Source: an uncultured bacterium
Lineage (GTDB): Bacteria; Zixibacteria; MSB-5A5; GN15; PGXB01
Assembly: GCA_965602655.1 (NCBI GenBank)
Contig: CBFCZE010000001.1
Location: 1 to 60,126, forward strand
DNA: 60,126 bases
Direction: 5' to 3'
This document shows, in pieces, positions 39,145 to 56,446 of this stretch. A program made the translations under genes and the position numbers. Within the stretch, counting starts at the first letter, position 1, and each line of letters begins with the position of its first letter. The notes beneath the pieces were generated by a model. The model saw only the letters and a list, made by a program, of their open reading frames with translations. It had not been told where the DNA came from and made no database searches.

Positions 39145-39184
39145 GAGCTTTGTAAACTATTTTGACATTTGTGTGTTTAAAGAT

Positions 39185-39676: not shown

Positions 39677-39722
39677 TTAATATTTGCAAATATCCGATTA
39701 TCAGATATATTGAAAATTAACT

Positions 39723-40685: not shown

Positions 40686-40689
40686 TTTT

Positions 40690-41148
40690 ATGAGACGGCT
40701 GTTACCGATTATACTGTTATTTATTTCCAATCTGTTGCTATTAATACTATTATCATGCTCTAATTCAGGGACAAGGAGCCCCAAAGAAACGGTTATTCGT
40801 CTTTTCGGCGCAATGGAACGGGATGAGAAAGCGGCCATATTAAATTTGGTCGATATTTCGGCTCTTATGGAAATATCGGGTGAAGATTACGCTCTCAAAT
40901 CTGATAATCCGCGAACTTTTCATAACCCCGAAGATATATTAAACGATCTAACTGGCGATGGATTGACAAAAACGCGCTGGTTTTCACTGCAAAGGATAAT
41001 CGGCAAAGTGGAAATCGTCGGCGACACCGCTTTTGTCGAGGTTTCCTTTATTGACAAAGAAAAAAGTAAACAATACTACAATAAATTTGGTCTTCATAAA
41101 AAAGATAACAACTGGAAGATTTATAATTTTAGAACGATTTCCCAATAA
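40690..41148 (+). CDS. hypothetical lipoprotein
   Basis: Lipobox LILLSCS. 152 aa. SPKETVIRLFGAMERDEKAAILNLVD suggests an NTF2/DUF4878-like small domain. Confidence 0.5.
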   Translation: MRRLLPIILLFISNLLLLILLSCSNSGTRSPKETVIRLFGAMERDEKAAILNLVDISALMEISGEDYALKSDNPRTFHNPEDILNDLTGDGLTKTRWFSLQRIIGKVEIVGDTAFVEVSFIDKEKSKQYYNKFGLHKKDNNWKIYNFRTISQ

Positions 41149-41215
41149 TGCTGCAACTTATTGGAAATCATAACATTACCATTTTATAACAGCCGCAGCC
41201 ACAAGGCCGAGCACT

Positions 41216-41470
41216 ATGTATAAAGGCATAATTATTCAAATCGAACGTTCAAAAGGGTACGGATTTATCAAATCTGAGATTTTTGATAAGCTGTTTTTTC
41301 ATCAGCGATGGCTGAGAAAAATCAAATTTCGCGATCTTGAAGTTGGTTCCGAAATTACATTTTGCATAAATCAGGGTCCCCGGGGGCCGCGTGCCCATGA
41401 TATCTGTTTGGCGGGCCAAAATGAGCATAAAGTTAAGGCTCGTCCAATAGAACAACTGTTTAAAGATTAG
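41216..41470 (+). CDS. cold-shock-domain-like small protein
   Basis: 84 aa. YKGIIIQIERSKGYGFIKSE...FFH loosely follows the CspA 'G.V.....KGFGFI......D.FVH' pattern. Confidence 0.45.
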   Translation: MYKGIIIQIERSKGYGFIKSEIFDKLFFHQRWLRKIKFRDLEVGSEITFCINQGPRGPRAHDICLAGQNEHKVKARPIEQLFKD

Positions 41471-41666: not shown

Positions 41667-41695
41667 TTGACATAAGATATTCTATTTTATAAATT
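41667..41695 (+). promoter_or_regulatory. sigma70-like promoter for the 12-gene operon (TTGACA-N17-TAAATT)
   Basis: TTGACA at 41667-41672, a 17-nt spacer, TAAATT at 41690-41695. It leaves a ~105-nt 5' UTR containing the hairpin CCGGAG-cttgaaaaa-CTCCGG (41716-41736). Confidence 0.4.
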
Positions 41696-41808: not shown

Positions 41809-43086
41809 TTGAATAAGATTTACGCCAATATTCCCGGATTCAAAAGTATAAAATACGTTTCTTTAATTTCTTTAATTTCAATTTTTCTATTAGGATCAAC
41901 AGCCCCTGTTTTTGGTCAGGATGATGCCCCGGTCGATTCTGTCTTAGCCGATACAACAAATATAATCCCTCCCGATATTACTCCCGTTAATGTGAAAAAT
42001 GTCACTGTCATAGATAATCCTAATGACGATGGTGAGGCTATCAGGATTAGTTGGGATGTATCGATTGATGATATTTCAGGCGGTAAGGTTACCGCTTACA
42101 AGATATTCCGTTCCACCAGCCGAACCGGAGATTTTGAAGAAGTTGGCAATCAAACATCGGGCGATTCGGAATATACCGACAGCAATACCGAGGATGGTAC
42201 CGAATACTATTATTATGTTAGCGCTGTTAATGAGTTAAGAGATAATGGCAAGATTTTATGGTCGGTTAAATCAGACTCGGATATAGCCGGGCCGGTAAAA
42301 TCATCGGCGCAGTGGTTCGATATGGGGCGGATAAATGTTTTTATCGGCACGATTTTAATCATCACTTTTATACTATATTTTATATCGGCGGCAAAATCGG
42401 GCAAGGATTTATATATCAGGAAAATTGCCGGATTGGATGCGGTCGATGATGCTGTCGGTCGTGCCACCGAGATGGGCAAAAAAGTGTTCTTTATCCCCGG
42501 TATCAATGATATGGACAATGTCCAGACGATTGCCGGATTAACAATATTAGGCAGGGTGGCACAATTGACTGCCGAATATGAGACCTGGATCGAGGTTCCT
42601 GTTTGTAAATCACTGGTGATGATCACTGCCCGCGAAACGGTCAAGGAATCTTATGCCAAGGCAGGAAGACCCGATGCCTTCAATGAAGATCAGGTACATT
42701 ATGTAACTGATGATCAATTTGGCTATGCGGCGGCGGTGGATGGTATGTTTGTCCGCGAAAAACCGGCCGCTATTTTCTATATGGGTGCCTTTTTCGCCGA
42801 ATCGCTGATTATGGCCGAAACCGGAAATTCTGTTGGTGCTATTCAGATAGCCGGAACCGGTCAACCCTCGCAGTTACCGTTTTTTGTGGCGGCCTGCGAC
42901 TATACATTAATCGGTGAAGAACTTTTTGCCGCTTCGGCTTATCTTTCCAAAGAGCCAAAACTGCTTGGTTCTCTTAAGGGTCAGGATATGGGTAAAGCGG
43001 TTATTTTGGTGGCGATATTACTGGGAGTATTGCTGGAAACATTTAATTTTTTCCAGCTTTCGAACTTTTTTACGGTTATTGGGTGA
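41809..43086 (+). CDS. module 1 subunit A: signal peptide + FN3-like ectodomain + TM + conserved ~230-aa C-terminal domain
   Basis: TTG start (uncertain). Signal peptide ...STAPVFGQDD. Ectodomain DDGEAIRISWDVSIDD...AYKIFRS...EYYYYVSAVN. TM INVFIGTILIITFILYFISAA. The conserved block IRKIAGLDAVDDAVGRATEMG...FFAESLIMAETG..IQIAGT..LPFFVAACDYTLIGEELFAASAYL is shared with the ORFs at 45437 and 49131. Confidence 0.85.
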   Translation: MNKIYANIPGFKSIKYVSLISLISIFLLGSTAPVFGQDDAPVDSVLADTTNIIPPDITPVNVKNVTVIDNPNDDGEAIRISWDVSIDDISGGKVTAYKIFRSTSRTGDFEEVGNQTSGDSEYTDSNTEDGTEYYYYVSAVNELRDNGKILWSVKSDSDIAGPVKSSAQWFDMGRINVFIGTILIITFILYFISAAKSGKDLYIRKIAGLDAVDDAVGRATEMGKKVFFIPGINDMDNVQTIAGLTILGRVAQLTAEYETWIEVPVCKSLVMITARETVKESYAKAGRPDAFNEDQVHYVTDDQFGYAAAVDGMFVREKPAAIFYMGAFFAESLIMAETGNSVGAIQIAGTGQPSQLPFFVAACDYTLIGEELFAASAYLSKEPKLLGSLKGQDMGKAVILVAILLGVLLETFNFFQLSNFFTVIG

Positions 43087-43104
43087 TTGAGGTAAAATAG
43101 AAAG

Positions 43105-43758
43105 ATGAGACGCGAAATACCAATGTTTATCACCGCTGTCGTCGGTGTTGTCTTTGTTGTTCAGTATTTTATTCCTCATTGGCCATTTAATCAAATGAAT
43201 GCCTGGTTCTCCGATTGGTTTTCAATTATTGCCGCCTGTGCCATTTGGCTTGGTGCCCTGAACCTGATGAAAATATCAGCCAATAAGGTATATCGGAAAA
43301 AATCCGACTGGGGCTATTCAGCGGTTATTATTGTTTGTTTTCTGATTACGGTTATAATTGGCCTTACCGGTGGAGAAAGTTTCCGTGCTCTTGGAACCGG
43401 TTTTGACTGGATTTACAGGTTTGTTTATATTCCGTTATCGTCAACCATGTTTGCCCTTCTGGCGTTTTTTGTCGCTTCGGCTTCATATCGAGCTTTCCGG
43501 GCAAGGAATTTTGAGGCAACTCTTTTACTTATTGCCGCCTTCTTAGTGATGATTGGCCGCGTTCCGATTGGTGATGCCATCGCCGGGATTTTTTATATGC
43601 CGGATGCCATTATGCCGTCAAAAATTGCCACCTGGGTTATGAATGTGATTAATGCCGCCGGCCAAAGGGCTATTATGATTGGAATCGCGCTTGGCATTGT
43701 ATCCACATCTTTACGGGTAATTCTCGGTATTGAACGAGCCCATTTGGGGGGAGATTGA
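43105..43758 (+). CDS. module 1 subunit B: ~215-aa polytopic membrane protein
   Basis: 5-6 hydrophobic helices. Signature FFVASASYRAFRARNFEATLLLIAAF and AGQRAIMIGIALGIVSTSLRVILGIERAHLG, shared with the ORFs at 46691 and 50411. Confidence 0.85.
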   Translation: MRREIPMFITAVVGVVFVVQYFIPHWPFNQMNAWFSDWFSIIAACAIWLGALNLMKISANKVYRKKSDWGYSAVIIVCFLITVIIGLTGGESFRALGTGFDWIYRFVYIPLSSTMFALLAFFVASASYRAFRARNFEATLLLIAAFLVMIGRVPIGDAIAGIFYMPDAIMPSKIATWVMNVINAAGQRAIMIGIALGIVSTSLRVILGIERAHLGGD

Positions 43759-43760
43759 TA

Positions 43761-44768
43761 ATGAAAAAAGAACGGCTCGTTTATCTTGGTATTTTAATTC
43801 TGGTGTTAATATTATACTTTGTTATCACGGAACCGATTACATTTTCGCCAACCGTATCATTTATTATTATTGGTCTGATACTACTGGCTATTGTTGTTAT
43901 ATTCGTTCGGACCATTCAGGGTAATTTTGTTGGGAGACAAACGGTTTTTATATTTGTGGGAATCGCCGTGGTCTTGCCGTTTTTTATGACCGTAACCCAG
44001 AAGATAGAATTATCTCCGGAAGTAGAATCTCTTTATACCTCCCTTGAGGACTTACAACCGGGTTCCAAAGTGCTGATCTCTTTTGATTATGATCCGCCAT
44101 CAGCACCGGAACTTCAGCCGATGGCCGAGACATTTTTCTATTATTGCTTTAAAAATGATTTAAAAGTTTTAATTATGGGGCTTTGGCCGCAGGGACCGCA
44201 GCAGGCTGATCTGGCAATTCAAAAGGCACTGATGAATGCAGATATTTTCTCCAAAAATATTCAATATGGGGTTGATTATATTAATCTCGGTTTTCAGGCC
44301 GGCAATGAATTTGTTATTCAAAGAATGGGCGGCAACTTTAAGAGTATGTTCCCGACCGATTTTTATGGAACACCGTATGATTCGCTGCCTTTGGCCAACG
44401 GGATTACGAATTTTTCAAATATCGATTTTTCGATGAATCTATCAGCCGGTTATCCGGGAACAATCGAATGGGTCCAGGTAGCAGTTGACAGGTATGGAGT
44501 TAATCTGGGCGCGGGGAACACTGCTGTTCAGGCTCCGCAGGTTTATCCATATCTGAATTCAGGACAACTAAAAGGTTTGCTTGGTGGATTAAACGGTGCC
44601 GCTGAATTTGAAAAGGTTGTCGGAGTTATAGGCAAAGGTACAAAATTTATGGTGTCGCAGTCGGCGGCGCATGTAATTGTAATTGCGTTTATTATTATTG
44701 GTAATGCCGCTTTTTTCCTGGGCGAACGGCGCCGTAAGGAAAAAGAAGCGAAGGAAGCCGATGCTTAA
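43761..44768 (+). CDS. module 1 subunit C: N-terminal TMs + ~230-aa periplasmic domain + C-terminal TM and basic tail
   Basis: ATG 43761 (GGAG upstream; the ORF track starts at TTG 43755). ISFDYDPPSAPELQPMAE..., VDYINLGFQAGN, YPYLNSGQLKGLLGGLNGAAEFEK, and the final TM IVIAFIIIGNAAFFL followed by RRRKEKE. Paralogous to the ORFs at 47361 and 51066. Confidence 0.85.
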   Translation: MKKERLVYLGILILVLILYFVITEPITFSPTVSFIIIGLILLAIVVIFVRTIQGNFVGRQTVFIFVGIAVVLPFFMTVTQKIELSPEVESLYTSLEDLQPGSKVLISFDYDPPSAPELQPMAETFFYYCFKNDLKVLIMGLWPQGPQQADLAIQKALMNADIFSKNIQYGVDYINLGFQAGNEFVIQRMGGNFKSMFPTDFYGTPYDSLPLANGITNFSNIDFSMNLSAGYPGTIEWVQVAVDRYGVNLGAGNTAVQAPQVYPYLNSGQLKGLLGGLNGAAEFEKVVGVIGKGTKFMVSQSAAHVIVIAFIIIGNAAFFLGERRRKEKEAKEADA

Positions 44769-44789
44769 GAAACGTGGAGAGATTTCCTG

Positions 44790-45434
44790 ATGGAAGTAGT
44801 TGGAATCTGGTTAGGTGCCTTTTTGACACTGGGCATAATCTCGTTTTTATACGGTGATAACCCATGGTACAAATTATGCGAGGCAATTTTTGTCGGTTCC
44901 TCGGCCGGATACTGGTTTATAACGCTTTTTTGGGATAATATATACGGCAAGTTTTATATCGGCGTTACCCAGGATGGGAATTACATGCTACTTGTCGGCG
45001 GCGTGCTTGGATTCCTGATGCTGATGCGTCTTTTTTCCAAGATCGGCTGGATATCCCGCTGGCCGCTATCATTTGTGGTTGGGGCTATCGCCGGATTTTA
45101 CCTGATAAACTATTTTTCATCGAATGTGATGTTTCAGATTAATGCTACTATCATGCCATTATTTGGCGCCAGTTATGGTGATCCTATTTTCACGGCATCT
45201 TTTGGGAATGTTATTAACAATATTCTTATTGCCGGCGGAACATTTACCGGTCTGGTCTATTTCTTCTTCTCCAAGGAGCATAAAGGTGCTTTTGGAGGGG
45301 CCGCCAAAATCGGTATCTGGGTTATTATGGTAACCTTTGGCGCCTCGTTCGGATACACCGTGATGAGCCGTATGTCTTTGTTAATCGGCCGTATGGATTT
45401 CATCTTTGGCGATTGGCTGGGGCTGATTAAGTAA
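44790..45434 (+). CDS. module 1 subunit D: polytopic membrane protein
   Basis: FLTLGIISFLYGDNPWYKLCE..., YFFFSKEHKGAFGGAAKIGIWVIMVTFGASFGYTVMSRMSLLIGR. Paralogous to the ORFs at 48271 and 51948. Confidence 0.85.
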   Translation: MEVVGIWLGAFLTLGIISFLYGDNPWYKLCEAIFVGSSAGYWFITLFWDNIYGKFYIGVTQDGNYMLLVGGVLGFLMLMRLFSKIGWISRWPLSFVVGAIAGFYLINYFSSNVMFQINATIMPLFGASYGDPIFTASFGNVINNILIAGGTFTGLVYFFFSKEHKGAFGGAAKIGIWVIMVTFGASFGYTVMSRMSLLIGRMDFIFGDWLGLIK

Positions 45435-45436
45435 CA

Positions 45437-46672
45437 ATGCCTGGTAATTTGAAACCACTTCGTTTTACAGATATTTTTGGAATTTCCTTTTTTATATTAT
45501 TTTTTTTCGTTTCGATTGCAGCCGGCCAGGAAACCGAAAAATTTCCTGTCGATTCGATTGATATTTATATCACTGACGCGGCAACAAATGTTGTTGCAGT
45601 CGATCATGTTTATGACCGTGGTGATGCTGTTGATCTCTTTTGGACATTATCAATCGACAACGATAAAATCAGCGAATATCAGATTTTGAGGATGGATGAA
45701 GGTGGATCAGAATATAATCAGGTCGGTATGGCTTTGCCCGGAGATAATTCATTTGTTGATAAGAGCGTGGAAAGCGGTCAGAGTTATGTTTATAAGATTG
45801 CCGGCGTTTATGACGGCGGCATGGTTGAATCCGAGCCGTCCGAAATAGTAATACCCGACACCGAGCTTGTTAACTGGAATCTTTTGAATCTGTTTATAAT
45901 TGGATTTCTGATAGCCGGTGCGGTTATTTACTTTATTGCGCACGTCAAGGCGGGTAAAAAGCTGTTTATCCGAAAAATCGCCGGTCTGGAAGCGGTTGAT
46001 GAGGCCATCGGCCGGGCCACCGAGATGGGCCGACCGATTCTGTTTATACCCGGAATCAATGATATGGACGATGTTCAGACAATAGCGGGTATTACGCTGT
46101 TGGGACGGGTCGCCAAAGTGGTTGCCGATTATGATATAAAAATTAATATGCCGGTTGCCCGTTCGCTGGTAATGACAACCGCGCGCGAGACAATTAGGGA
46201 AGCCTATATTGGTGCCGGCCATCCCGATGCCTATAATGACGATATGGTCCGTTATATCACCGATGAGCAGTTTGGTTATGTCGCTGCCGTTGATGGTATT
46301 ATGGTTCGTGAAAAACCGGCCACCTGTTTTTATCTGGGTGCCTTTTTTGCCGAATCGCTGATCCTGGCTGAAACCGGTAATTCTATTGGAGCGATTCAGA
46401 TTGCCGGAACAGCAATGCCAACGCAATTGCCATTTTTTGTGGCCGCCTGCGACTATACCTTAATCGGCGAAGAACTTTTTGCGGCCTCGGCCTATCTGTC
46501 CGGTGAGCCAAAACAGCTCGGCTCGCTTAAGGGGCAGGATGTTGGGAAATTAATCGCTATGGTCGCTTTATTAATTGGAGTCTTAAGTATCACTATATCT
46601 GAGGCCTGGGGCGTTGACTTTTTTGTCTGGCTGACAGAAAAGATGCAGGCGATGTTTACAATTCAGAATTGA
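45437..46672 (+). CDS. module 2 subunit A
   Basis: Starts 2 nt after D1. Signal peptide ...VSIAAGQE. Ectodomain DRGDAVDLFWTLSIDNDKISEYQILRM...SYVYKIAGV. TM LFIIGFLIAGAVIYFIAHV. The C-terminal block IRKIAGLEAVDEAIGRATEMG...LPFFVAACDYTLIGEELFAASAYL is roughly two-thirds identical to A1 by eye. Confidence 0.85.
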   Translation: MPGNLKPLRFTDIFGISFFILFFFVSIAAGQETEKFPVDSIDIYITDAATNVVAVDHVYDRGDAVDLFWTLSIDNDKISEYQILRMDEGGSEYNQVGMALPGDNSFVDKSVESGQSYVYKIAGVYDGGMVESEPSEIVIPDTELVNWNLLNLFIIGFLIAGAVIYFIAHVKAGKKLFIRKIAGLEAVDEAIGRATEMGRPILFIPGINDMDDVQTIAGITLLGRVAKVVADYDIKINMPVARSLVMTTARETIREAYIGAGHPDAYNDDMVRYITDEQFGYVAAVDGIMVREKPATCFYLGAFFAESLILAETGNSIGAIQIAGTAMPTQLPFFVAACDYTLIGEELFAASAYLSGEPKQLGSLKGQDVGKLIAMVALLIGVLSITISEAWGVDFFVWLTEKMQAMFTIQN

Positions 46673-46690
46673 TGGAGGTAAGATAAGGGT

Positions 46691-47368
46691 TTGAAAAGAC
46701 AGGTTCCGGTTGTCATTACTTTTATCGTCGGTACTGTACTGATACTGTCGGTCTTTTTCCCGCCGGTGGAACGGATGGGCGAGGACTTTTCAATATTCTT
46801 TGATATTATCGCCGTCTTTGCCTTTTTCCTGGGCGGCGGAAACCTCCTTAGAATCCATACCTCCAAGATTTATAAAAAACGCAAGGACTGGGGATTTTCG
46901 GTTGTCACTATCTGCGGTTTTGGAATAATGATGATGGCCGGGCTTTTCAAACTCTGGAATCCGGGCGGAATCGCCGCCGATGTGGCCGCTACCGGTTCAC
47001 TGTTCCAGTTAATGTACGACTGGATATTTAATCCGCTCGGTGCCTCGATGTATTCACTTCTGGCGTTTTATGTCGCCTCGGCTTCATACCGGGCTTTCCG
47101 AGCAAAAAATATAGATGCCACTATTCTTCTTGTGGCGGCTTTTATAATTTTACTGGGACGGACGCCGCTCGGTATGTATGCCACCGGTTGGATTCCGGAA
47201 TCATTTTCGATAATGCAGATTCCGAATCTTGCTATCTGGATTATGGTCTCACCCAATCTGGCCGGGCAAAGGGCGATTATGATTGGTATCGCGCTCGGCG
47301 TGGTTTCGATGTCACTAAGATTAATTCTCGGCGTCGAAAGGACATATCTGGGGGTGGACAATGAGTAG
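46691..47368 (+). CDS. module 2 subunit B
   Basis: The TTG start (GGAGG 11 nt upstream) gives MKRQVPVVITFIVG, colinear with B3 MKRQLPLTLVFIFG. FYVASASYRAFRAKNIDATILLVAAF. AGQRAIMIGIALGVVSMSLRLILGVERTYLG. Confidence 0.8.
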   Translation: MKRQVPVVITFIVGTVLILSVFFPPVERMGEDFSIFFDIIAVFAFFLGGGNLLRIHTSKIYKKRKDWGFSVVTICGFGIMMMAGLFKLWNPGGIAADVAATGSLFQLMYDWIFNPLGASMYSLLAFYVASASYRAFRAKNIDATILLVAAFIILLGRTPLGMYATGWIPESFSIMQIPNLAIWIMVSPNLAGQRAIMIGIALGVVSMSLRLILGVERTYLGVDNE

Positions 47369-48278
47369 TATCGGCATTATTGTCTCGGCAGTGGTAATTG
47401 TTGTCGGTCTTCTCTGGCTCGCTGTCCGATCGCTTACCGGTCACGAGGTGGAACGGCGCGTTATCTTTCTGTTTATCGGATTATCTGTCTCATTACCGCT
47501 TTTGTTTAATCTTACGTTTTCCGAAAAAGCGACCCCGATCGTTAAGGGTATCTATGACAAAATAGACAACCTTCCCTCCGGATCAAGAATTCTTATTTCG
47601 TTTGACTATGGTCCCTCGATGGCGCCCGAAGTTGAGCCGATGTCCAATGCTTTTATAAGACATTCTTTAGCCAAAGATCATAAAGTTATTATTATGGGTT
47701 TATGGGCGACCGGTCAGTCACTTGGAGCATCGGCGGTGGAGAATATAGTAAAAGCAGAATTCCCCGATAAAGTCGATGGAGTCGATTACATTAATATCGG
47801 CTACAAAGCCGGTAATCAGGGCGTTCTCAATGTAATTATTACCGATTTTAGAAAAATGTATGCCACCGATGTTAACGGTGTCGATCTCGATTCTGTCCAG
47901 ATTTTTGAAGGTATCAGATCTTTAAAAGATATGGCTCTGATGATTTCGGTTGGCGGCGGATTTCCGGGAATAAAAGAATGGGTTCTTTTTGCGGCCGACC
48001 CGGGGAATATTCCACTGGCCGGGGGAAGCGCCGCGGTGGCGACGCCAACCATGTATCCATACTATCCCAAACAGCTGATTGGACTTTTGGGCGGTATCAA
48101 AGGTGCGGCCGAGTATGAATCCGAAATGAAAAAGAATTATCCTCGATTTGCCGACATGCCGACTCCGGGTGTTAATATGATGGGCCCGCAAACCCTGGCG
48201 CATATGGTTGTTATGGCTTTTATAATTATTGGCAACCTGTCATTTTTCTTCGCGAAAAAGAGGAAATCCGATGGATAG
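47361..48278 (+). CDS. module 2 subunit C
   Basis: 8-nt overlap with B2. ISFDYGPSMAPEVEPMSN..., VDYINIGYKAGN, YPYYPKQLIGLLGGIKGAAEYE. C-terminal TM followed by KKRKSDG. Confidence 0.85.
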   Translation: MSSIGIIVSAVVIVVGLLWLAVRSLTGHEVERRVIFLFIGLSVSLPLLFNLTFSEKATPIVKGIYDKIDNLPSGSRILISFDYGPSMAPEVEPMSNAFIRHSLAKDHKVIIMGLWATGQSLGASAVENIVKAEFPDKVDGVDYINIGYKAGNQGVLNVIITDFRKMYATDVNGVDLDSVQIFEGIRSLKDMALMISVGGGFPGIKEWVLFAADPGNIPLAGGSAAVATPTMYPYYPKQLIGLLGGIKGAAEYESEMKKNYPRFADMPTPGVNMMGPQTLAHMVVMAFIIIGNLSFFFAKKRKSDG

Positions 48279-49095
48279 CTCGCGAAGAATATCAATGATC
48301 GTATTGGCGGCTGTAATTATTTTGTTTGCTGTCAGCTGGATTGTCAAAACGATGGCTCTTCAGGCTACTGGAGCCGAGGGATTAATGTCGGTCCGCGATG
48401 CCTTTTTTGTTACTTTTGCAGCCTTTTTAACACTGGCTATATTTTCATTCCTATACAAAGATAATCCATATTATAAATTTGCAGAACATCTGTTTGTTGG
48501 CGTCTCGGCCGCCTACTGGATGAGCGTCGGTTTTTGGTCAACCTTTGTCGGTAATTTTATACCGAAAGTCTCGACTACACTCTCAAACTTTTTTGAGGTT
48601 CCGCCCAAAGATTTTGAAATTCATTATTTTGTACCGCTTATACTTGGATTGATGCTTTTAATGCGGTTGTCGCCGAAAGGCGGATGGTTATCGCGTTGGT
48701 CATTGGCTTTTATTGTCGGAACAACAGCAGGCTTAAATCTGATTAGATATTTGCGTACTGATTTTATCACGCAGGTGAGTAATACATTTGTGCCGTTATT
48801 GGTAGATTGGAAAGGAATCGGACCATTTTTCTCAGATTTTTCGCTGAGCGCCTCGGGTCAGTTTGTTATGACCATGGCTAATTGGGTGATTTTTATCGGG
48901 GTCTTCAGCGGTTTGATATATTTCTTTTTCTCCAAGGAACATAAAGGATTTTTCGGTCATGCCTCACGGGTCGGCATCTGGGTGCTGATGATTACCTTTG
49001 GCGCCTCTTTTGGATATACCGTGATGGGCCGCGTCTCATTGCTGGTGGGACGGCTGACATTTCTATTCAGAGATTGGCTGGGATTGATAAGTTAA
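48271..49095 (+). CDS. module 2 subunit D
   Basis: ATG 48271 (GAGGA upstream, 8-nt overlap with the C2 stop) gives MDSSRRISMIVLAAV.... FLTLAIFSFLYKDNPYYKFAE.... YFFFSKEHKGFFGHASRVGIWVLMITFGASFGYTVMGRVSLLVGR. The ORF-track start at 48229 lies inside C2. Confidence 0.8.
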   Translation: MDSSRRISMIVLAAVIILFAVSWIVKTMALQATGAEGLMSVRDAFFVTFAAFLTLAIFSFLYKDNPYYKFAEHLFVGVSAAYWMSVGFWSTFVGNFIPKVSTTLSNFFEVPPKDFEIHYFVPLILGLMLLMRLSPKGGWLSRWSLAFIVGTTAGLNLIRYLRTDFITQVSNTFVPLLVDWKGIGPFFSDFSLSASGQFVMTMANWVIFIGVFSGLIYFFFSKEHKGFFGHASRVGIWVLMITFGASFGYTVMGRVSLLVGRLTFLFRDWLGLIS

Positions 49096-49130
49096 TTCAA
49101 ATTAAATTTAAATATATATACGAGGTGCCT

Positions 49131-50396
49131 ATGAAGCTAAAACTTCTATTTCTAAGTTGCCTGCTGTTTATATTTGTGTATCCCACCGCCTTCACTCAGG
49201 GTGAAGCGGTAGTTGAGGATTCACTGGAAACAACGGCAGAAATGATCGCGCCGGCACCGATATCGAACCTGAATGCCCTTGATATGGATAACGATCACGG
49301 GCATGCCATTAAGTTGCACTGGGAGATATCGGTTGATGACGGCGGCGGGAAGAATAATGTATTTGGATATACCATCTTTCGTTCCGAATCACCCGATGGA
49401 CCATTTGAAGAGTATGGTATACTTCCTCTTGGCGAATCAAGTTATAACGACGTTGGTTCGAAGGAAAAAGATTCACCCTCCTATATGGCCGATCATACCG
49501 ATTATTATTACAAAGTAAGAACAAAAACTTTGGATAGTCTGGTCTTTACCGATTCCGAAATCTTTGGACCGGTGCAGTGTTATGGCCAATGGTTCAATAC
49601 CGCGCGTATTCCGGTTCTGGTTTTTGTGATTGGATTTTTGCTGGTTACCATGCTGTTCATAAAAAAGGCTCGCGGCGGCGCCGAGCTGTTTGTTAGACGT
49701 TTGGCCGGTATTGAGGCGGTTGATGAGGCAATCGGCCGTGCCACCGAGATGGGTAAACCGATTCTGTATGTTATGGGTCTCGGGGTGGCGTCGGAGATTG
49801 CCACTATTGCCTCATTTACGATTTTGGGGCGTGTTGCCAAAAAAGTGGCCGAGTATCAAACCGGTTTGATTGTACCATGCTACGACCCGATTGTGATGAC
49901 CATCGCACAGGAAACGGTTAAGGCCAGTTATATGGATGCCGGTCGTCCCGATACCTACTCCGACGACATGGTTTATTTTGTAACACAATCGCAGTTTGCC
50001 TATGTCGCCGCGGTGAATGGTACGATGCTTCGAGAACTTCCCGCCACTAATATTTATATGGGTAAGTTTTTCGCCGAATCATTGATTCTGGCCGAAACCG
50101 GGGCCCTGGCCGGATCGATTCAGATTGCCGGCACCGATGAAATCGCACAGATTCCGTTTTTTGTGGTTGCCTGCGACTATACCCTTATCGGCGAGGAACT
50201 GTATGCCGCTTCGGCCTATCTTGGCCGCGAGCCGATTTTATTAGGTTCGCTGAAGGCTCAGGATTATGCCAAAGCCGGTGTTATTATATGTGCCCTATTA
50301 GGTTTTATTACCATCAACTTTGGTTGGGATAGTCTGGCTCAATGGTTCCAGGTTCCCAATTCATTCTTTGCTAACCTTTTTGGCGGACCTAATTAA
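49131..50396 (+). CDS. module 3 subunit A
   Basis: ATG 49131 (GAGGTG upstream) gives the signal peptide MKLKLLFLSCLLFIFVYPTAFTQGE. Ectodomain DHGHAIKLHWEISVDD...GYTIFRS...DYYYKVRTK. TM IPVLVFVIGFLLVTMLFI. VRRLAGIEAVDEAIGRATEMG...IPFFVVACDYTLIGEELYAASAYL. Confidence 0.85.
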   Translation: MKLKLLFLSCLLFIFVYPTAFTQGEAVVEDSLETTAEMIAPAPISNLNALDMDNDHGHAIKLHWEISVDDGGGKNNVFGYTIFRSESPDGPFEEYGILPLGESSYNDVGSKEKDSPSYMADHTDYYYKVRTKTLDSLVFTDSEIFGPVQCYGQWFNTARIPVLVFVIGFLLVTMLFIKKARGGAELFVRRLAGIEAVDEAIGRATEMGKPILYVMGLGVASEIATIASFTILGRVAKKVAEYQTGLIVPCYDPIVMTIAQETVKASYMDAGRPDTYSDDMVYFVTQSQFAYVAAVNGTMLRELPATNIYMGKFFAESLILAETGALAGSIQIAGTDEIAQIPFFVVACDYTLIGEELYAASAYLGREPILLGSLKAQDYAKAGVIICALLGFITINFGWDSLAQWFQVPNSFFANLFGGPN

Positions 50397-50410
50397 GGAG
50401 GGAGGGAATA

Positions 50411-51055
50411 ATGAAAAGACAATTACCGCTTACTCTGGTGTTTATATTCGGTATCTTCATGATATTCCAGTACTTTGTCCCTCATGAAATATCCGAAACA
50501 ATTTTTGAGTTTCTACTTGATTGGATCTATATTATCGGCATCTTTGCGCTGGCTCTTGGAATTTGGTCATTGATAAGGGTCTCCTGGGATAAAATCCAGA
50601 AAAGAAAAGAAAACTGGCCGTATGCCGTCGTAACCCTTTTTGGTCTGGTGGCAATGATATTTTTCGGCTTTGATTATGGCCGACATTTCTTTTCAGCCGA
50701 AGGGTTGGATAATTACATGTGGCTCAATTTCTTTAATTATATAATGATACCGATTCAGGCAACGATGTTCTCACTTTTGGCTTTCTTTATTGCCTCGGCC
50801 GCTTACCGTGCCTTCCGGGCCAGATCACTTCTGGCCACTTTGTTGTTGGTTGCGGCCTTGATTGTGATGCTGCGTTTCAATCCATATTTAGGTCCCTTTA
50901 TTGCCGAGTATATGGAAAAAACCGCTTCATGGCTTCTCAATGTTCCTAATCTGGCGGCCAAAAGAGGTATTATCATCGGTGTCGGTCTGGGAATTGTGGC
51001 CACCGCCCTGAAAGTAATTCTGGGCATTGAACGTAATTACCTGGGCAAGGATTGA
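50411..51055 (+). CDS. module 3 subunit B
   Basis: RBS GGAGGGAGG. FFIASAAYRAFRARSLLATLLLVAAL. AAKRGIIIGVGLGIVATALKVILGIERNYLG. Confidence 0.85.
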   Translation: MKRQLPLTLVFIFGIFMIFQYFVPHEISETIFEFLLDWIYIIGIFALALGIWSLIRVSWDKIQKRKENWPYAVVTLFGLVAMIFFGFDYGRHFFSAEGLDNYMWLNFFNYIMIPIQATMFSLLAFFIASAAYRAFRARSLLATLLLVAALIVMLRFNPYLGPFIAEYMEKTASWLLNVPNLAAKRGIIIGVGLGIVATALKVILGIERNYLGKD

Positions 51056-51065
51056 GGAGGAAACT

Positions 51066-51932
51066 ATGAATATATTTGATCGAATTATGTCATTGGATCG
51101 CCGCTGGGTCTTCCTCCTTCTGGCAATAGTATGCGTTATTACTTACGCTATCCCTTTCCAAATTAAGATTATTGTTACCGGCGAAGTAAGAAGCGTATAT
51201 AATTTTGTTGATACGCTCAAGGAAGGCGACATTATCTTTGTCGCTATTGATTATGATCCAAATTCATTAGCCGAAATGCATCCAATGACATACTCAATTG
51301 TTGAGCATGCATTTCGAAAGAAACTTAAGGTTATATTTACATCGCTTTCTCAGAACGGGCCGGGTATGGCTGATCAGGCTATAAGAGATATTGGCGATTC
51401 GGTGAGGATTGACAAAACGTATAACGGCGTGGCCTATGAGGGACGAGAAATAGTCAACGGTGTTGATTATGTTTTTCTTGGGTATAAACCATATCCGGCT
51501 CTGGTTATTGTCGGTATGGGGCAGAATTTCAGATTGCCTTTCCCGACCGACTACTATGGGACACCGCTTGATGAACACCCTTTGATGCAGGGTGTTCAAA
51601 ACTATGACCAGGTTAAATGCGTGATAGATATCTCCGGAACCAGTGGTGTCGATATGTGGATTACCTATGGTCAGGGAAGGTACAACTTCCCGCTGGCTCT
51701 CGGTTTAACTGGAGTTATGGCGGCCGATTATTATCCATATCTTAATTCCGGACAAGTTTTTGGAATTCTTGGTGGTCTATTGGGGGCGGCGCAATATGAA
51801 AAAATGGCAGATAATCCCGGCCGGGCGATGGACGGGATGCGAGTCCAGTTGTACGCACATATTGTTATCATCCTGTTTATTGTTCTTGGCAATGTCGGAT
51901 TCTTAGTATCCCGACGGAAAAAACGTCTTTAA
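51066..51932 (+). CDS. module 3 subunit C
   Basis: ATG 51066 (GAGGAGG upstream). One N-terminal TM (WVFLLLAIVCVITYAI). VAIDYDPNSLAEMHPMTY..., VDYVFLGYKP, YPYLNSGQVFGILGGLLGAAQYEK. C-terminal TM followed by RRKKRL. The ORF-track start at 51027 overlaps B3. Confidence 0.85.
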   Translation: MNIFDRIMSLDRRWVFLLLAIVCVITYAIPFQIKIIVTGEVRSVYNFVDTLKEGDIIFVAIDYDPNSLAEMHPMTYSIVEHAFRKKLKVIFTSLSQNGPGMADQAIRDIGDSVRIDKTYNGVAYEGREIVNGVDYVFLGYKPYPALVIVGMGQNFRLPFPTDYYGTPLDEHPLMQGVQNYDQVKCVIDISGTSGVDMWITYGQGRYNFPLALGLTGVMAADYYPYLNSGQVFGILGGLLGAAQYEKMADNPGRAMDGMRVQLYAHIVIILFIVLGNVGFLVSRRKKRL

Positions 51933-51947
51933 GGAGGTGAGTTTATT

Positions 51948-52712
51948 ATGGAAATAATGTCGATGGGAACATTTTTATGGACCAGTCTGGGAGCCTTTTT
52001 AACCCTGGCGACGTTCTCGTTTCTCTACAAGGATAATCCGTTTTATAAACTCGCCGAGCATCTTGTTGTTGGCGTTTCGGCGGGTTATTTTGTAATTATT
52101 CTCTGGCATAACGGTCTTCAGCCAAATCTATTTAATCGCCTGGGAGAAGGCAACTTCTGGTATTTTATTCCAATGATATTAGGCATTATGATGTGGACCC
52201 GGTTTTCAAGAAAATGGTCATGGGTCAGTCGCTGGCCAATTGCCATATATCTCGGTATTGCCACCGGCCTGTCAATTCCGCTGGAAATGAGAAACCGCGT
52301 CAATATGCAGCTGTACTCGACCATGCGAGAGGTCAACTGGGAGAATTTCTTTGGAAATGGATTCCTGGATCCGACTTCCGGATACTCAGGTTTGATAATT
52401 TTTCTTGGTGTTCTGGCCACGCTGTTTTATTTCTTCTTCTCCAAGGAGCATACCGGAGTTTTCAAAGGTGTGGCGCAATTGGGAATCTGGATATTGATGG
52501 TCGGTTTTGGAACCTCTTTTGGTTATACTGTTATGGCTCGTATTTCACTGTTTATTCAGAGGATTCAGGTGCTTGGCGATTATACCAAACTTAGCTGGAG
52601 TGGTGTAAGTGGCACATTTTTAACCCTCTGGTTTATAACCTTTGGCATTTTCGTAGCGCTTGCGTTGTACGAACTTGTTAAATACATCGGAAACAGAAAA
52701 ACAGCCACATAA
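51948..52712 (+). CDS. module 3 subunit D
   Basis: RBS AGGAGGTG. FLTLATFSFLYKDNPFYKLAE.... YFFFSKEHTGVFKGVAQLGIWILMVGFGTSFGYTVMARISLFIQR. It has an extra C-terminal TM relative to D1. Confidence 0.85.
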   Translation: MEIMSMGTFLWTSLGAFLTLATFSFLYKDNPFYKLAEHLVVGVSAGYFVIILWHNGLQPNLFNRLGEGNFWYFIPMILGIMMWTRFSRKWSWVSRWPIAIYLGIATGLSIPLEMRNRVNMQLYSTMREVNWENFFGNGFLDPTSGYSGLIIFLGVLATLFYFFFSKEHTGVFKGVAQLGIWILMVGFGTSFGYTVMARISLFIQRIQVLGDYTKLSWSGVSGTFLTLWFITFGIFVALALYELVKYIGNRKTAT

Positions 52713-52740
52713 CCGGTTTTAAATATAACAAACACCTGCA

Positions 52741-52767
52741 AAGCCCCGTTTCAACGGGGCTTTTTTA
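52741..52767 (+). terminator. rho-independent terminator ending the 12-gene operon
   Basis: AAGCCCCGTT-tc-AACGGGGCTT (52741-52762) followed by TTTTT, 28 nt after the D3 stop. Confidence 0.8.
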
Positions 52768-52895: not shown

Positions 52896-52924
52896 TTGAC
52901 ATACAATTAATCTATTGCTATAAT
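52896..52924 (+). promoter_or_regulatory. perfect-consensus sigma70 promoter (TTGACA-N17-TATAAT)
   Basis: TTGACA at 52896-52901, exactly 17 nt (tacaattaatctattgc), TATAAT at 52919-52924, preceded by an A/T-rich UP-like tract. ~85 nt upstream of ATG 53009. Confidence 0.6.
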
Positions 52925-53008
52925 CGTATGTATAATATATAATGTTAATAAGACGGATTGTTCAACCCGTTTGGCAATTAGCTTCAAAAATTCGAAAGCG
53001 AGGTGGGG

Positions 53009-53413
53009 ATGGCGAGAACATCAAGTTCCGCTGGCGCCAAAATAAAAACAAGAGCCAAGAAGAAAACAATGGCAAAGAATGGGCTAAAAATTAAGGTATC
53101 TGTCAAAGCGGAAGCCAAAACCGGAATAAAAGCAAAAAAAAGTAAGGGAAAACTATCGACACCTGAGGCACGCCGGGAATATCAGCGAAGATATTACCAG
53201 CTTCATAAGGATAAAGCCAAGGAATATCAAAGGCAATATAATCTTTCTCACAAGAAAAAGGTTCGTGGCGGCAGGGGCAAGGCCAATTTCATATGTCCGC
53301 GGGAAGTTGTTCGCGGCACTTTTAATACGGCCGATATTATGCACGCGCCGGTCGAAAAAACCCTCAAAATTCTGGAAAAGATTATAAGCGGTGAACGACT
53401 TTTCACAATGTAA
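53009..53413 (+). CDS. small basic protein with Lys/Ala-rich N-terminus
   Basis: ATG 53009 (GAGGTGGGG upstream; the ORF track starts at GTG 53003). AKIKTRAKKKTMAKNGLKIKVSVKAEAKTGIKAKKSKGK, then YQRRYYQLHKDKAKEYQRQY. An imperfect hairpin plus T-run follows at ~53437-53475. No family recognised. Confidence 0.5.
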   Translation: MARTSSSAGAKIKTRAKKKTMAKNGLKIKVSVKAEAKTGIKAKKSKGKLSTPEARREYQRRYYQLHKDKAKEYQRQYNLSHKKKVRGGRGKANFICPREVVRGTFNTADIMHAPVEKTLKILEKIISGERLFTM

Positions 53414-53539
53414 AATCAAAAACTAAAAATTTTAAAGGGTGGTTTTTGGAAATTTATTTTCCAAACCGCCTTTTAGTATTGATTAAATCACTAAAACAGC
53501 TTAGTTTACAGGTTGAAATTGAATAGTTTGGAGGCCAAT

Positions 53540-56446
53540 ATGGTTGCGCCGAAAAAGAAAAAAATCAGCAAAGCAGCAAAGGCACCAAAGAAAAAATCAA
53601 AAAAAATGCTGGAAGAAAAAAAGAAAACTGTTAAAAAGCTTATTACACCAAAGAAAAAAACTGCAAAGGTCAAAAAAGTGAAAAAGAATGAAAAGAAGAT
53701 AATAAGTAAATCCACAAATAAAACAACGAAGAAATCCGCCAAAACCAAAGCAGTAAAACTTGCAGCGACTAATCCACCATATTATTTCTTTGGAGGTGGT
53801 AAAGCAGATGGTGATTTAACAATGCGCGATCTACTTGGCGGAAAAGGCGCCGGATTGGCCGAGATGAGTCGAATTGGGATAAATGTTCCTCCTGGTTTTA
53901 CCATTACCACCGAGGTTTGCGATCTGTACTACAAAAACAACATGGAAATTCCCAAGGATATTGATAAAGATCTTGAAAAACAGATTGCCAAAATTGAAAA
54001 ACTGGTTGGCCTGAAATTCGGCGACCCGGACAAGCCGCTTTTGGTTTCAGTTAGATCGGGTGCCAAATTTTCGATGCCGGGCATGATGGATACTGTTCTG
54101 AACCTCGGTCTGAACGAAGAAACATTAAAAGGTTTCACGGATATAACCGGCAATGAACGTTTTGTCTTTGACAACTATCGTAGATTTATTCAGATGTTTG
54201 GCAATGTTGTTCTCGATATTGATAAAGAAAAGTTCGAAGGTATCATCGAGGCAAAAAAGAAAGGCAGAAAAATCAGGCAGGATTCGTCGCTTCAAGTGGC
54301 CGATCTCAATGATATTATCAAAAAATTCAAACAGGTCATCAAACACAAAACAGGGGAGCCGTTCCCGAATGATCCGTTTATACAATTACGCATGGCCCGC
54401 GACGCTGTTTTTCGCTCATGGAACAATCCCCGAGCGATAAGCTATCGGAAATTGAATAATATTCCTGGCAATCTTGGGACGGCAGTTAATGTCCAAACGA
54501 TGGTTTTTGGCAATATGGGTAATACGTCCGGAACCGGTGTTGGCTTTACACGTAATCCCGCCAACGGTAAAAAGGAATTTTATGGTGAATATCTTCTTAA
54601 TGCCCAGGGCGAGGATGTTGTGGCCGGAATCAGAACACCGCGACCGATTGCTGAACTGAATCAAGAGATGCCGGGTGTTTTCAAGCAGTTAAAGTCTATT
54701 ACTACCAAACTTGAAAAGCATTATCGTGATGTTCAAGATTTTGAATTTACTATCCAGGACGGCAAATTGTATATGCTTCAAACCCGGACTGGTAAAAGAA
54801 CCGTCCAGGCCGCACTAAAGATAGCCGTTGATATGGTCAAAGAAAAACTGATTACAAAAGAAGAAGCATTGATGCGGATTGAACCGGCACAGCTGGATCA
54901 ATTATTACATCCGCGACTTGATCCAAGTGCCAAATACGAATCGATTGCCCAGGGATTGCCGGCTTCTCCGGGAGCGGCATCCGGTAAAGTGTTCTTTACT
55001 TCCGAAGATGCCGTGGCTCATGCCAAAGAAAGCAAGGGTATTATACTTGTAAGGCAGGAAACCAATCCTGATGATATCGAGGGTATGAATGCGGCTCGCG
55101 GCATTTTAACGTCGCGCGGCGGAATGACTTCTCATGCGGCGGTGGTGGCACGCGGAATGGGTAAGAGTTGTGTCGCCGGCTGTGAGGCAGTACGCGTTCG
55201 TCATGCCAAAAAACAGATGCAGATTGGCAAACTTATGATCAAAGAAGGCGATGTTATTACCATCAATGGTTCCACCGGTGAGGTGATGCTGGGTGCTGTC
55301 TCTACAATTGAGCCCGAACTGTCGGGCGAGTTTGGCGAATTTATGAGTTGGGCCGACGATATCAGAAAGCTGGGTGTAAGGGCCAACGCCGATACTCCCA
55401 AGGATGCCAATCAGGCCAAGAAATATGGTGCTGAGGGAATCGGTTTATGTCGTACCGAACATATGTTCTTTGCCGAGGAAAGATTACCAATTGTCCAGGA
55501 TATGATTCTGGCCGAGACAACCGAAGATCGTATGGTTGCTCTTGATAAACTTCTTCCATTTCAGAAAAAAGATTTCAAGGGCCTTTTTGAGGCAATGAAC
55601 GGAATGCCGGTTACGATCAGAACGCTTGATCCGCCTCTGCATGAATTTTTGCCGGATCGTAAGCAGATTGAAAAAGAGCTTGAAGAACTGGATAAAAAAG
55701 ATGACGATTATGATGAGAAAAATGACCGGCTGAGCAAGATACTGCGTCGGATTGATGAACTAAAAGAGATTAACCCGATGCTGGGTCATCGTGGATGCCG
55801 ATTGGGAATTGTCTATCCCGAGATTACCGAAATGCAGGTGAGAGCAATTATCGAAGCCGCCTGCGAGGTAAACAAAAAGGGCAAAAAGGCCTTTCCGGAG
55901 ATTATGATTCCGCTGGTTGGTCATATCAATGAGTTCAAAAATCAAAAGGAAGTTGTTGAGCGGATTATCGGCGAGACGGTGAAGAAATATCGCACCCGGA
56001 AACTTGATTATTTGATAGGGACTATGATTGAAATCCCAAGGGCTGCTTTAACGGCCGACGAAATCGCCGGCGAGGCCCAATTCTTCAGCTATGGCACCAA
56101 CGATCTGACTCAGATGGCGATGGGCTTCTCTCGCGACGACGCCGGTAAATTCCTCCGTTACTATGTTGATAAAGGAATTTTGCCGAGCGATCCATTTATT
56201 TCAATCGACCAGAACGGCGTCGGACAGTTGATTGAGATGGCAACCGAAAAAGGCAGATCTGCCAATGCTAATCTGAAAATCGGTATCTGCGGTGAGCATG
56301 GCGGCGATCCCGATTCGATTGAGTTTTGTCATCGAATCGGACTCAACTACGTTTCCTGCTCTCCATTCAGGGTTCCGATTGCGCGGTTGTCTGCCGCTCA
56401 GGCGACAATAAAAGAGAAAACAAAAACCGCCGAACGCGATAAATAG
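53540..56446 (+). CDS. ppdK: pyruvate, phosphate dikinase with ~78-aa Lys-rich N-terminal extension
   Basis: ATG 53540 (GGAGG upstream). Canonical PPDK blocks MRDLLGGKGAGLAEM, catalytic His loop TSRGGMTSHAAVVARGMGK, GLCRTEHMFF, IGICGEHGGDP. Preceded by MVAPKKKKISKAAKAPKKKSKK...KTKAVKLAATN (53540-53773). Confidence 0.93.
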   Translation: MVAPKKKKISKAAKAPKKKSKKMLEEKKKTVKKLITPKKKTAKVKKVKKNEKKIISKSTNKTTKKSAKTKAVKLAATNPPYYFFGGGKADGDLTMRDLLGGKGAGLAEMSRIGINVPPGFTITTEVCDLYYKNNMEIPKDIDKDLEKQIAKIEKLVGLKFGDPDKPLLVSVRSGAKFSMPGMMDTVLNLGLNEETLKGFTDITGNERFVFDNYRRFIQMFGNVVLDIDKEKFEGIIEAKKKGRKIRQDSSLQVADLNDIIKKFKQVIKHKTGEPFPNDPFIQLRMARDAVFRSWNNPRAISYRKLNNIPGNLGTAVNVQTMVFGNMGNTSGTGVGFTRNPANGKKEFYGEYLLNAQGEDVVAGIRTPRPIAELNQEMPGVFKQLKSITTKLEKHYRDVQDFEFTIQDGKLYMLQTRTGKRTVQAALKIAVDMVKEKLITKEEALMRIEPAQLDQLLHPRLDPSAKYESIAQGLPASPGAASGKVFFTSEDAVAHAKESKGIILVRQETNPDDIEGMNAARGILTSRGGMTSHAAVVARGMGKSCVAGCEAVRVRHAKKQMQIGKLMIKEGDVITINGSTGEVMLGAVSTIEPELSGEFGEFMSWADDIRKLGVRANADTPKDANQAKKYGAEGIGLCRTEHMFFAEERLPIVQDMILAETTEDRMVALDKLLPFQKKDFKGLFEAMNGMPVTIRTLDPPLHEFLPDRKQIEKELEELDKKDDDYDEKNDRLSKILRRIDELKEINPMLGHRGCRLGIVYPEITEMQVRAIIEAACEVNKKGKKAFPEIMIPLVGHINEFKNQKEVVERIIGETVKKYRTRKLDYLIGTMIEIPRAALTADEIAGEAQFFSYGTNDLTQMAMGFSRDDAGKFLRYYVDKGILPSDPFISIDQNGVGQLIEMATEKGRSANANLKIGICGEHGGDPDSIEFCHRIGLNYVSCSPFRVPIARLSAAQATIKEKTKTAERDK

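Follow-up and report, generated by a model that had tools for sequence, protein, structure and literature searches.

We analyzed a stretch of 60,126 nucleotides (nt), hereafter the window, from contig CBFCZE010000001.1 (assembly GCA_965602655.1) of an uncultured bacterium assigned to Zixibacteria by GTDB. At positions 41809-52712 the window carries twelve plus-strand open reading frames (ORFs) in which a four-gene order, A-B-C-D, occurs three times over. Our results give good support to a cytoplasmic-membrane complex in which A, B, C and D are the four subunits and each set contributes about 16 transmembrane (TM) helices. Also well supported are the placement of the FN3 domain of A and an alpha/beta domain of C on its periplasmic face and of the DUF6754 domain of A on its cytoplasmic face, and the view that the window carries the genes of three paralogous complexes, transcribed together, in each of which the subunits come from one and the same module. 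The near-invariant gene order, the module-wise co-evolution and the existence of C-D fusions suggest that ABCD is very probably a hetero-oligomer. An earlier description of the same DNA, made without database searches (the sequence-only reading), had noted the (A-B-C-D)x3 order on one strand, which was found as described. It had also proposed a conserved envelope complex kept in three specialised versions, and this proposal is supported by co-occurrence, module-wise orthology and the fusions, from which physical association is inferred.

The first module consists of A1 (41809-43086, 425 amino acids, aa), B1 (43105-43758, 217 aa), C1 (43755-44768, 337 aa, or 335 aa from the ATG at 43761) and D1 (44790-45434, 214 aa). 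It is followed by A2 (45437-46672, 411 aa), B2 (46691-47368, 225 aa), C2 (47361-48278, 305 aa) and D2 (48229-49095, 288 aa from the TTG at 48229 and likelier 274 aa from the ATG at 48271). The third module comprises A3 (49074-50396, 440 aa from the TTG at 49074 and likelier 421 aa from the ATG at 49131), B3 (50411-51055, 214 aa), C3 (51027-51932, 301 aa from the TTG at 51027 and likelier 288 aa from the ATG at 51066) and D3 (51948-52712, 254 aa). The gene lengths reported earlier match the ATG starts, and successive genes are spaced by -50 to +21 nt. A promoter-like site, TTGACA-17-TAAATT (41667-41695, plus strand), lies about 115 nt upstream of A1 as a pattern match in a sigma-70-like consensus scan, and a strong intrinsic-terminator-like hairpin (52740-52763, plus strand; a 10-bp stem with 6 G-C pairs and a T run) lies 28 nt past the D3 stop. 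Since the array has one promoter-like site and one terminator, and the next gene has a perfect consensus promoter of its own (52896-52924), the twelve genes look like one transcription unit, as far as such signals in the DNA can tell.

Protein identity among the three paralogues is 44-51% for A (51% between A2 and A1), 38-47% for B (47% between B2 and B1), 30-37% for C (37% between C2 and C1) and 40-48% for D, and alignments across families gave noise-level scores. Internal symmetry of the module, with B related to D and A to C, was considered and rejected (hhalign probability <1%). At the DNA level the modules share at most 74% identity, in patches only, and independent assemblies from at least 4 ENA samples gave the same genes with identical gene calls (425/217/335/214/411/225 aa). 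An assembly artefact or a recent duplication is thereby ruled out, and the earlier claim that the triplication is old stands. Invariant core residues are present in all three copies, and long invariant motifs are retained though the paralogues are only 40-50% identical overall. It is well supported that the modules differ mainly in peripheral parts, namely extra TM helices and loop insertions. D2 has an additional N-terminal hydrophobic segment and D3 an additional C-terminal TM helix, and in A3, the most divergent A, the PGINDMD loop is replaced. All motifs quoted by the sequence-only reading are present, except that D1 has FLYGDNP where the others have FLYKDNP.

The module is widespread and its order is nearly fixed. 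At least 420 relatives of A were found with one genome scanned per species, and the best 80 loci were used for gene-order counts. The order A-B-C-D was observed in all but one of these 80 loci, from several phyla, the remaining locus (L049) being read as ABDC in one scan; the four families thus co-occur well outside this contig. Most of the 80 loci belong to Zixibacteria, and the window, 86% identical to a metagenome-assembled genome (MAG) of Zixibacteriota, probably comes from this phylum as well. Other hosts are WOR-3, Stahlbacteria, Eisenbacteria, Gemmatimonadota, Cloacimonadota, Fermentibacteria, one complete Acidobacteriota chromosome and MAGs labelled Planctomycetaceae. The A family comprises at least 8000 clusters at 90% identity and the D family 2513 clusters at 50% identity (E-value of 1e-3 or better). 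Among the 360 matches listed, the named sources of homologues are MAGs throughout, and hundreds of homologues bear the database names 'hypothetical', 'FN3 domain-containing' or 'DUF6754'.

Copy number varies with lineage, with one module in the non-Zixibacteria phyla and two or three in Zixibacteria-type contigs. The full ABCDABCDABCD array was found in at least 22 other loci. In Zixibacteria arrays, each module best matches the module of the same position in the window for A, B, C and D alike, with the 1-2-3 order conserved, and array variants 1-3, 1-2 and 1-3-1' also occur. Because modules 1, 2 and 3 are positional orthologues, the triplication must be older than these Zixibacteria lineages, and because orthology is module-wise for all four subunits, cognate partners within a module are implied. 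Such module-wise evolution would be expected if the four products of one module contact each other. On the complete Zixibacteriota chromosome CP070824.1 (L006, L009 and L061), a multi-module operon is accompanied by a single ABCD at a separate site and by an orphan A around which no B, C or D lies within 10 kb. In another array (L077) the order is ABCD-ABCD-A-A-B-C-C-D, with A3 and C3 each in two ORFs, probably through frameshifts or pseudogenisation in that MAG.

Subunit A combines a recognizable ectodomain with a domain of a named family. The C-terminal 255 aa correspond to Pfam PF20539 (DUF6754; E ~1e-127), a family label that carries no function. A1 scored 422 bits over positions 2-256 of the 257-position model (E 7e-127) and A2 411 bits (E 2e-123), against a gathering score of 27 bits; A3 aligns throughout, and 78/78 A homologues scanned matched the family. 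The sequence-only reading had left all four families unplaced, which holds for B, C and D but not for A. For the ectodomain, Pfam fn3 remained below threshold (20 bits vs a cut-off of 25), and an A-family profile with A1 as first sequence matched titin FN3 at E 2e-19. AlphaFold 2 (AF2) modelled residues 63-164 as a beta-sandwich with a predicted local distance difference test (pLDDT) score of ~90, for which Foldseek returned FN3 matches at probability 1.0; profile and predicted fold thus both place the ectodomain among FN3 domains. Its PND.G..I...W motif has D, G and W invariant in 78 homologues. After the FN3 domain come a TM helix with Lys/Arg residues behind it and a domain of ~200 aa, and the chain ends in one more TM helix and a short tail without charges. 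The signal peptide, FN3 ectodomain, TM helix and conserved domain described earlier were all recovered, and the last TM helix is an addition to that description.

Within the cytoplasmic part of A, residues 205-325 were modelled with good confidence as alternating beta-strands and helices of a Rossmann-like kind. The most conserved stretch is residues 328-389, which contain the motifs AESL..AETG, IQIAGT and ACDYT.IGEEL.AAS.YL; together with GRATEMG, the segments AESL..AETG, IQIAGT and ACDYT.IGEE make up an invariant acidic/Cys/Thr cluster of DUF6754. The hydropathy of this stretch (0.5-1.1) is too low for TM helices, and it is probably a buried cytoplasmic core or an interface that needs partner subunits to fold.

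Topology was analyzed by the positive-inside rule with 55-78 sequences per family, and the polytopic nature of B and D noted earlier was confirmed. In B, 56 sequences indicate 6 TM helices with both termini in the cytoplasm, the mean Lys+Arg content being 1.9, 3.5, 2.0 and 1.3 for inside loops vs 0.6, 0.8 and 0.4 for outside loops. The SYRAFRA motif falls in the cytoplasmic TM4-TM5 loop and ILGIER.YLG in the cytoplasmic tail. Two B3 orthologues (L043:15163-16935 and L053:14986-16761) have an insertion of ~370 aa with repeated Asp/Gly motifs in the predicted periplasmic TM3-TM4 loop. Judged by eye, this insertion looks like a candidate FG-GAP/VCBS-type beta-propeller, a reading that, if right, agrees with the B topology.

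Subunit C has 1-3 N-terminal TM helices (three in C1), a six-stranded alpha/beta domain of ~220 aa, a long C-terminal TM helix and a basic tail. The AF2 model is of high quality (pLDDT 90; predicted template modelling score, pTM, 0.81), and charge bias places the domain in the periplasm in all three paralogues. Model and charge bias together uphold the periplasmic domain, C-terminal TM helix and basic tail of the earlier description, to which one to three N-terminal TM helices are now added. A Foldseek search of the C model against PDB returned generic Rossmann-like alpha/beta folds only (best E 9.5e-4, TM-score at most 0.52). Subunit D is polytopic with ~6 TM helices, and the motifs of D1 are YGDNPWYK..E, YFFFSKEH.G and FGASFGYTVM.R.SL. 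Its invariant polar residues include N24, Y27, E31, R80, S161, H164, T190 and R194 (D1 numbering). C and D were found fused in proteins of ~570-600 aa, at L061:15721-17436, where the orthologue of C3 is joined to D3, and in P0256, P0289 and P0319 (at least three 50%-identity clusters). Several long D homologues (P0286, P0297, P0349, P0351 and P0357) have insertions of 100-370 aa between TM4 and TM5; the insertions and extensions of long D homologues had no Pfam match, and only the C-D fusions were recognizable, with C regions counted only where they precede D.

Searches for known families placed little beyond A. B, C and D had no match at gathering score in Pfam-A or NCBIfam, and Pfam scans run separately on each of 56 B sequences and 59 D sequences, with E allowed to reach 1, gave only scattered hydrophobic noise (such as TMD0_ABC and 7TMR-DISM). 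No curated transporter, channel or pump family of Pfam-A or NCBIfam was found for B, C, D or the DUF6754 region. Against PDB sequences (phmmer and hmmsearch), B and D matched none, C did no better than E ~0.07-0.9, and A matched only FN3. Known defence systems (PADLOC) searched at E <=0.1 yielded nothing bar a noise-level '2TM effector' (E 0.096). MotA_ExbB (PF01618) was not detected in A, B, C or D, and genuine ExbB genes are separate neighbours in other loci. In short, no subunit had a confident match to a known transporter, respiratory complex or defence system, and the earlier statement that no known transporter signature is visible withstood the hidden Markov model and profile searches. 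By every test available, comprising sequence and profile searches of the subunits and a fold comparison of C and of the FN3 domain of A, ABCD falls outside the known kinds of membrane systems. The literature searched contained no mention of DUF6754 or PF13941, and a Zixibacteria gene-cluster search was also empty; none of the libraries or literature searched contained the partners B, C and D, the four-gene module as a fixed unit, or its triplication.

The genes around ABCD in other genomes offer clues to its function. Among 53 A-anchored loci with enough upstream DNA, 23 have a GlmL-like ATPase and/or a 375-aa protein upstream of the module, either co-directional (such as L072, L073, L076, L078, L036, L041, L043 and L053) or divergent. 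The full upstream trio consists of a hydrophobic protein of ~140 aa, a GlmL/MutL-family ASKHA (actin-fold) ATPase of ~620 aa and the protein of ~375 aa. In Pfam the ATPase matches MutL (PF13941; E 8e-123), and in NCBIfam it reaches 224 bits for GlmL, against an equivalog cut-off of 475 bits. The glutamate-mutase/B12 context of GlmL was considered for this gene and dismissed, as it scores below equivalog cut-offs and no mutase lies beside it in the loci examined. The 375-aa protein is highly conserved, has no family assignment and contains the motifs QGIFGIGGE, ITG.E..GITLV.TEGFG and NGATQIRAGV.RPE. Weak recurrent matches point to a barrel-sandwich-hybrid N-terminus (Biotin_lipoyl in 22/25 members, RnfC_N in 10/25 and NQRA_N in 7/25). 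In a metagenome scan anchored on this protein (L081-L160), ABCD is present in 18 of the 37 loci informative for it, usually in the order small protein, ATPase, 375-aa protein, ABCD. The absence of an ATPase, stated earlier, is thus correct within the window, whereas elsewhere a GlmL-family ASKHA ATPase adjoins the module in about half of the informative loci. The trio is itself an uncharacterised system, and ABCD is missing at about half of its loci.

ExbB was found within 10 kb of A in 13 A-anchored loci, in three layouts. In Fermentibacteria (L078) the order is GcvP, small protein, ATPase, 375-aa protein, ABCD, TonB-dependent receptor, ExbB, ExbD, ExbD and TonB. In WOR-3 (L037), ABCD is followed by a DUF4388 protein, four small genes, ExbB, ExbD, ExbD and TonB; the DUF4388 domain, which we take to be the PATAN domain, was confirmed by Pfam beside ABCD at this locus only. 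In the Zixibacteria layout, a divergent operon of ATPase, an unnamed gene and 375-aa protein is followed by ExbB. What is new here is that the ATPase and 375-aa protein adjoin the module in about half of the informative loci, and that ExbB-ExbD-TonB, a TonB-dependent receptor or a PorV-like outer-membrane protein often lies near it; of all these, the window has the PorV-like protein alone.

From architecture and neighbours we tentatively propose that, in a pathway for trans-envelope uptake or transduction, ABCD may supply the inner-membrane core. A ligand, or a partner arriving from an outer-membrane protein, would be received at the periplasmic domains of C and A; candidates for that outer-membrane protein would be a TonB-dependent receptor or a PorV/FadL-like barrel, with ExbB-ExbD-TonB providing the energy. 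The membrane path would consist of B and D along with the TM helices of A and of C, and the cytoplasmic DUF6754 domain would provide a docking or catalytic site, which in many genomes might be served by the GlmL-family ATPase and the 375-aa barrel-sandwich-hybrid protein. A wider proposal, which we regard as conceivable if somewhat unlikely, is that ABCD represents the membrane core of a new class of trans-envelope machine in uncultured phyla, found in the Fibrobacterota-Chlorobiota-Bacteroidota (FCB) superphylum and at least one member of Acidobacteriota and unrelated by homology to known transporters, motors or secretion systems, which would join a GlmL-type ATPase and its partner to TonB/ExbBD-energised outer-membrane parts via the FN3 and alpha/beta domains, and of which Zixibacteria would encode three specialised versions, diverged long ago, in a single operon.

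Several observations weigh against such an uptake or transduction role. No subunit resembles a known transporter, channel, motor or enzyme, and the notion of transport therefore comes from architecture and neighbours. The presumed active site, residues 328-389 of A, was modelled at pLDDT 30-45, and a Foldseek search with the whole A model returned FN3 matches only; since FN3 dominated the matches, the search was uninformative for DUF6754. The orientation of D is ambiguous, as the one implied by fusion of C to D is opposite to that implied by the additional segment at the N-terminus of D2. The 60-kb window contains no ATPase, 375-aa protein, ExbB or TonB, which are also missing nearby at about half of the other loci, and the neighbourhood counts are inflated by the phylogenetic non-independence of loci. 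Neither does RNA supply a hint at a ligand: nothing reached Rfam gathering scores in the window or in seven loci with the ATPase upstream of the module, and these scans gave no riboswitch or other ligand clue.

Much of the same evidence could be read differently. ABCD might serve as the platform, in the inner membrane, of a machine for surface structures, adhesion or motility, coupling an ExbBD-type proton motor and the cytoplasmic actin-fold ATPase to periplasmic or outer-membrane parts, with a logic like that of Myxococcus Agl-Glt or of the type IX secretion system (T9SS) and gliding; exopolysaccharide or fibre assembly would be equally possible. The neighbours named above (ASKHA ATPase, ExbB/ExbD/TonB, PorV-like protein and, in WOR-3, the DUF4388 protein) would suit this analogy, and FN3 ectodomains are typical in adhesion and scaffolding, but here the ectodomains are anchored in the inner membrane rather than at the cell surface, and the DUF4388 adjacency comes down to the one Pfam-confirmed locus. 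Alignments between the C model and chains of the Bcs cellulose-secretion complex of E. coli were very weak (probability 0.16-0.41) and not significant, and neither general library scans nor the Foldseek search of C revealed homology to Glt, Gld, Por or Bcs components. No glycosyltransferase signature was detected either, and we consider such a surface machine unlikely. Another loose parallel is that of the subunit plan with Nqr/Rnf, from which an ion-translocating energy converter, Rnf/Nqr-like or decarboxylase-pump-like, might be imagined; the 375-aa protein and the cytoplasmic domain of A would then couple a reaction to H+ or Na+ movement via B and D. The weak recurrent barrel-sandwich matches in the 375-aa protein and the invariant Arg, Glu and His residues of B and D would fit. 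On the other hand, B and D lack invariant or near-invariant Cys and so show no cofactor-binding Cys signature, and hhalign against E. coli RsxA, RsxE, RsxG and RsxC gave probabilities of 0.2-2%. There was no Pfam Rnf-Nqr or OadB-type match even at E 1, and in the alignments as read, without a formal motif search, no SGAT-type flavin mononucleotide (FMN) motif was seen in C and no MKM-type biotinylation motif in the 375-aa protein. An Rnf/Nqr-like complex proper was rejected on the negative Rsx comparison and the missing cofactor motifs, and an ion pump in the wider sense appears very improbable.

A transmembrane sensor or signalling complex, whose periplasmic domains would sense a cue from the envelope or the environment and pass it to DUF6754, seems just as improbable. 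The plan of A (ectodomain, TM helix and cytoplasmic domain) is receptor-like, the invariant D, G and W of PND.G..I...W could belong to a sensing ectodomain, and a DUF4388 protein lies downstream in WOR-3 L037. Yet no kinase, cyclase, HAMP, PAS or receiver domain was found, no transcription factor is consistently linked, and the twelve polytopic helices of B and D would be superfluous for signalling; the tight four-gene stoichiometric operon and very high conservation fit a machine better.

The triplication raises a separate question, whether the three modules form parallel complexes or an obligate hetero-trimeric super-complex, (ABCD)1-(ABCD)2-(ABCD)3, derived from a homo-oligomer of the single-copy phyla. 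Such a super-complex would account for twelve genes in one tightly packed, partly overlapping transcription unit, for a 1-2-3 order conserved in at least 22 other loci and for the invariant core residues kept by all three copies. It is doubtful in view of the flexible copy number, with arrays 1-3, 1-2 and 1-3-1', and of the three separate A loci of CP070824.1. Because copy number is flexible and extra single loci exist in the same genome, parallel, specialised complexes are favoured.

Genes flanking the array in the window include further envelope components. Upstream, all on the plus strand, are genes for an LptE-like lipoprotein (39137-39676), a PorV/UPF0164-like outer-membrane beta-barrel (39723-40685; UPF0164 E 7e-5, PorV E 2e-3) 1.1 kb upstream of A1, a 152-aa lipoprotein (40690-41148) and a cold-shock-domain protein (41216-41470). 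This whole arrangement (39137-41470) is common to one close relative only (L002). Homologues of the PorV-like protein, 24-29% identical to the window gene, follow the 375-aa protein in 7 loci that lack ABCD and follow ABCD in one (L140), which is weak evidence that this gene may be functionally linked to ABCD. Directly after the last D, a 136-aa Lys-rich basic protein is encoded at 53003-53413 (plus strand), with the promoter at 52896-52924 (TTGACA-17-TATAAT) and a conserved C-terminal half, AEARREYQRRYYQ.HK.KAKEYQRQYNL.HKKK. It had no Pfam match and also follows the last D in 9 other Zixibacteria-type loci. Next comes a pyruvate phosphate dikinase ORF (53513-56446, plus strand), a gene that follows the ABCD array in ~10 loci. 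Its Lys-rich N-terminal extension of ~95 aa, with no internal Met before the canonical N-terminus, may be a real histone-H1-like tail or the product of a mis-set start.

For three of the four subunits, none of the libraries searched offers a family name, and a membrane complex so conserved, of which a genome may have up to three copies or more, should have some central part in how these sediment and subsurface bacteria run their envelope. If ABCD is indeed a new transporter or trans-envelope machine, it would be a new entry among the few bacterial membrane machines, and a role would be assigned to an orphan subfamily of GlmL-like actin-fold ATPases. Being well defined, and having both fusions and paralogues, the module is a tractable one to study.

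Compared with known systems, ABCD shares single features with several of them. A1, A2 and A3 are full-length members of PF20539, whose proteins are usually annotated as FN3 domain-containing or hypothetical; this family covers A only, not B, C or D. The likeness to Rnf/Nqr (RnfA/E, RnfG, RnfC; NqrD/E, NqrC, NqrA) is a loose one and lies in two polytopic subunits of ~215 aa with ~6 TM helices each and in a periplasmic alpha/beta subunit anchored by TM helices; other genomes add a peripheral partner whose N-terminus is of the barrel-sandwich-hybrid kind. There is, however, no sequence or profile relationship; ABCD has no equivalent of RnfB, RnfD or NqrF, and A, with its FN3 and DUF6754 domains, has no counterpart in those complexes. 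Agl-Glt and T9SS GldLM/PorLM resemble the neighbourhood of ABCD in combining a motor of the ExbBD type with a cytoplasmic actin-fold protein, with proteins of the inner membrane that have periplasmic domains, and with a PorV-like outer-membrane protein. They differ in that ABCD is not known to have homology to Glt, Agl, Gld or Por and that the ATPase beside ABCD is a member of the GlmL/MutL family rather than an MreB. In TonB-dependent uptake loci, ABCD stands where the inner-membrane importer would, as seen in Fermentibacteria, with ExbBD-TonB also near in WOR-3 and Zixibacteria. Known loci of this kind use ATP-binding cassette (ABC), major facilitator superfamily (MFS) or similar importers, whereas ABCD has no ABC ATPase, permease signature or free binding protein, and the link is missing in this window. 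Finally, the neighbour ATPase of other genomes shares its family with the GlmL/MutL protein of glutamate mutase and differs from it in profile score (224 vs 475 bits), in its length of ~620 aa with a C-terminal extension and in having no adjacent B12 mutase; on these sequence criteria it is a distinct GlmL/MutL subfamily.

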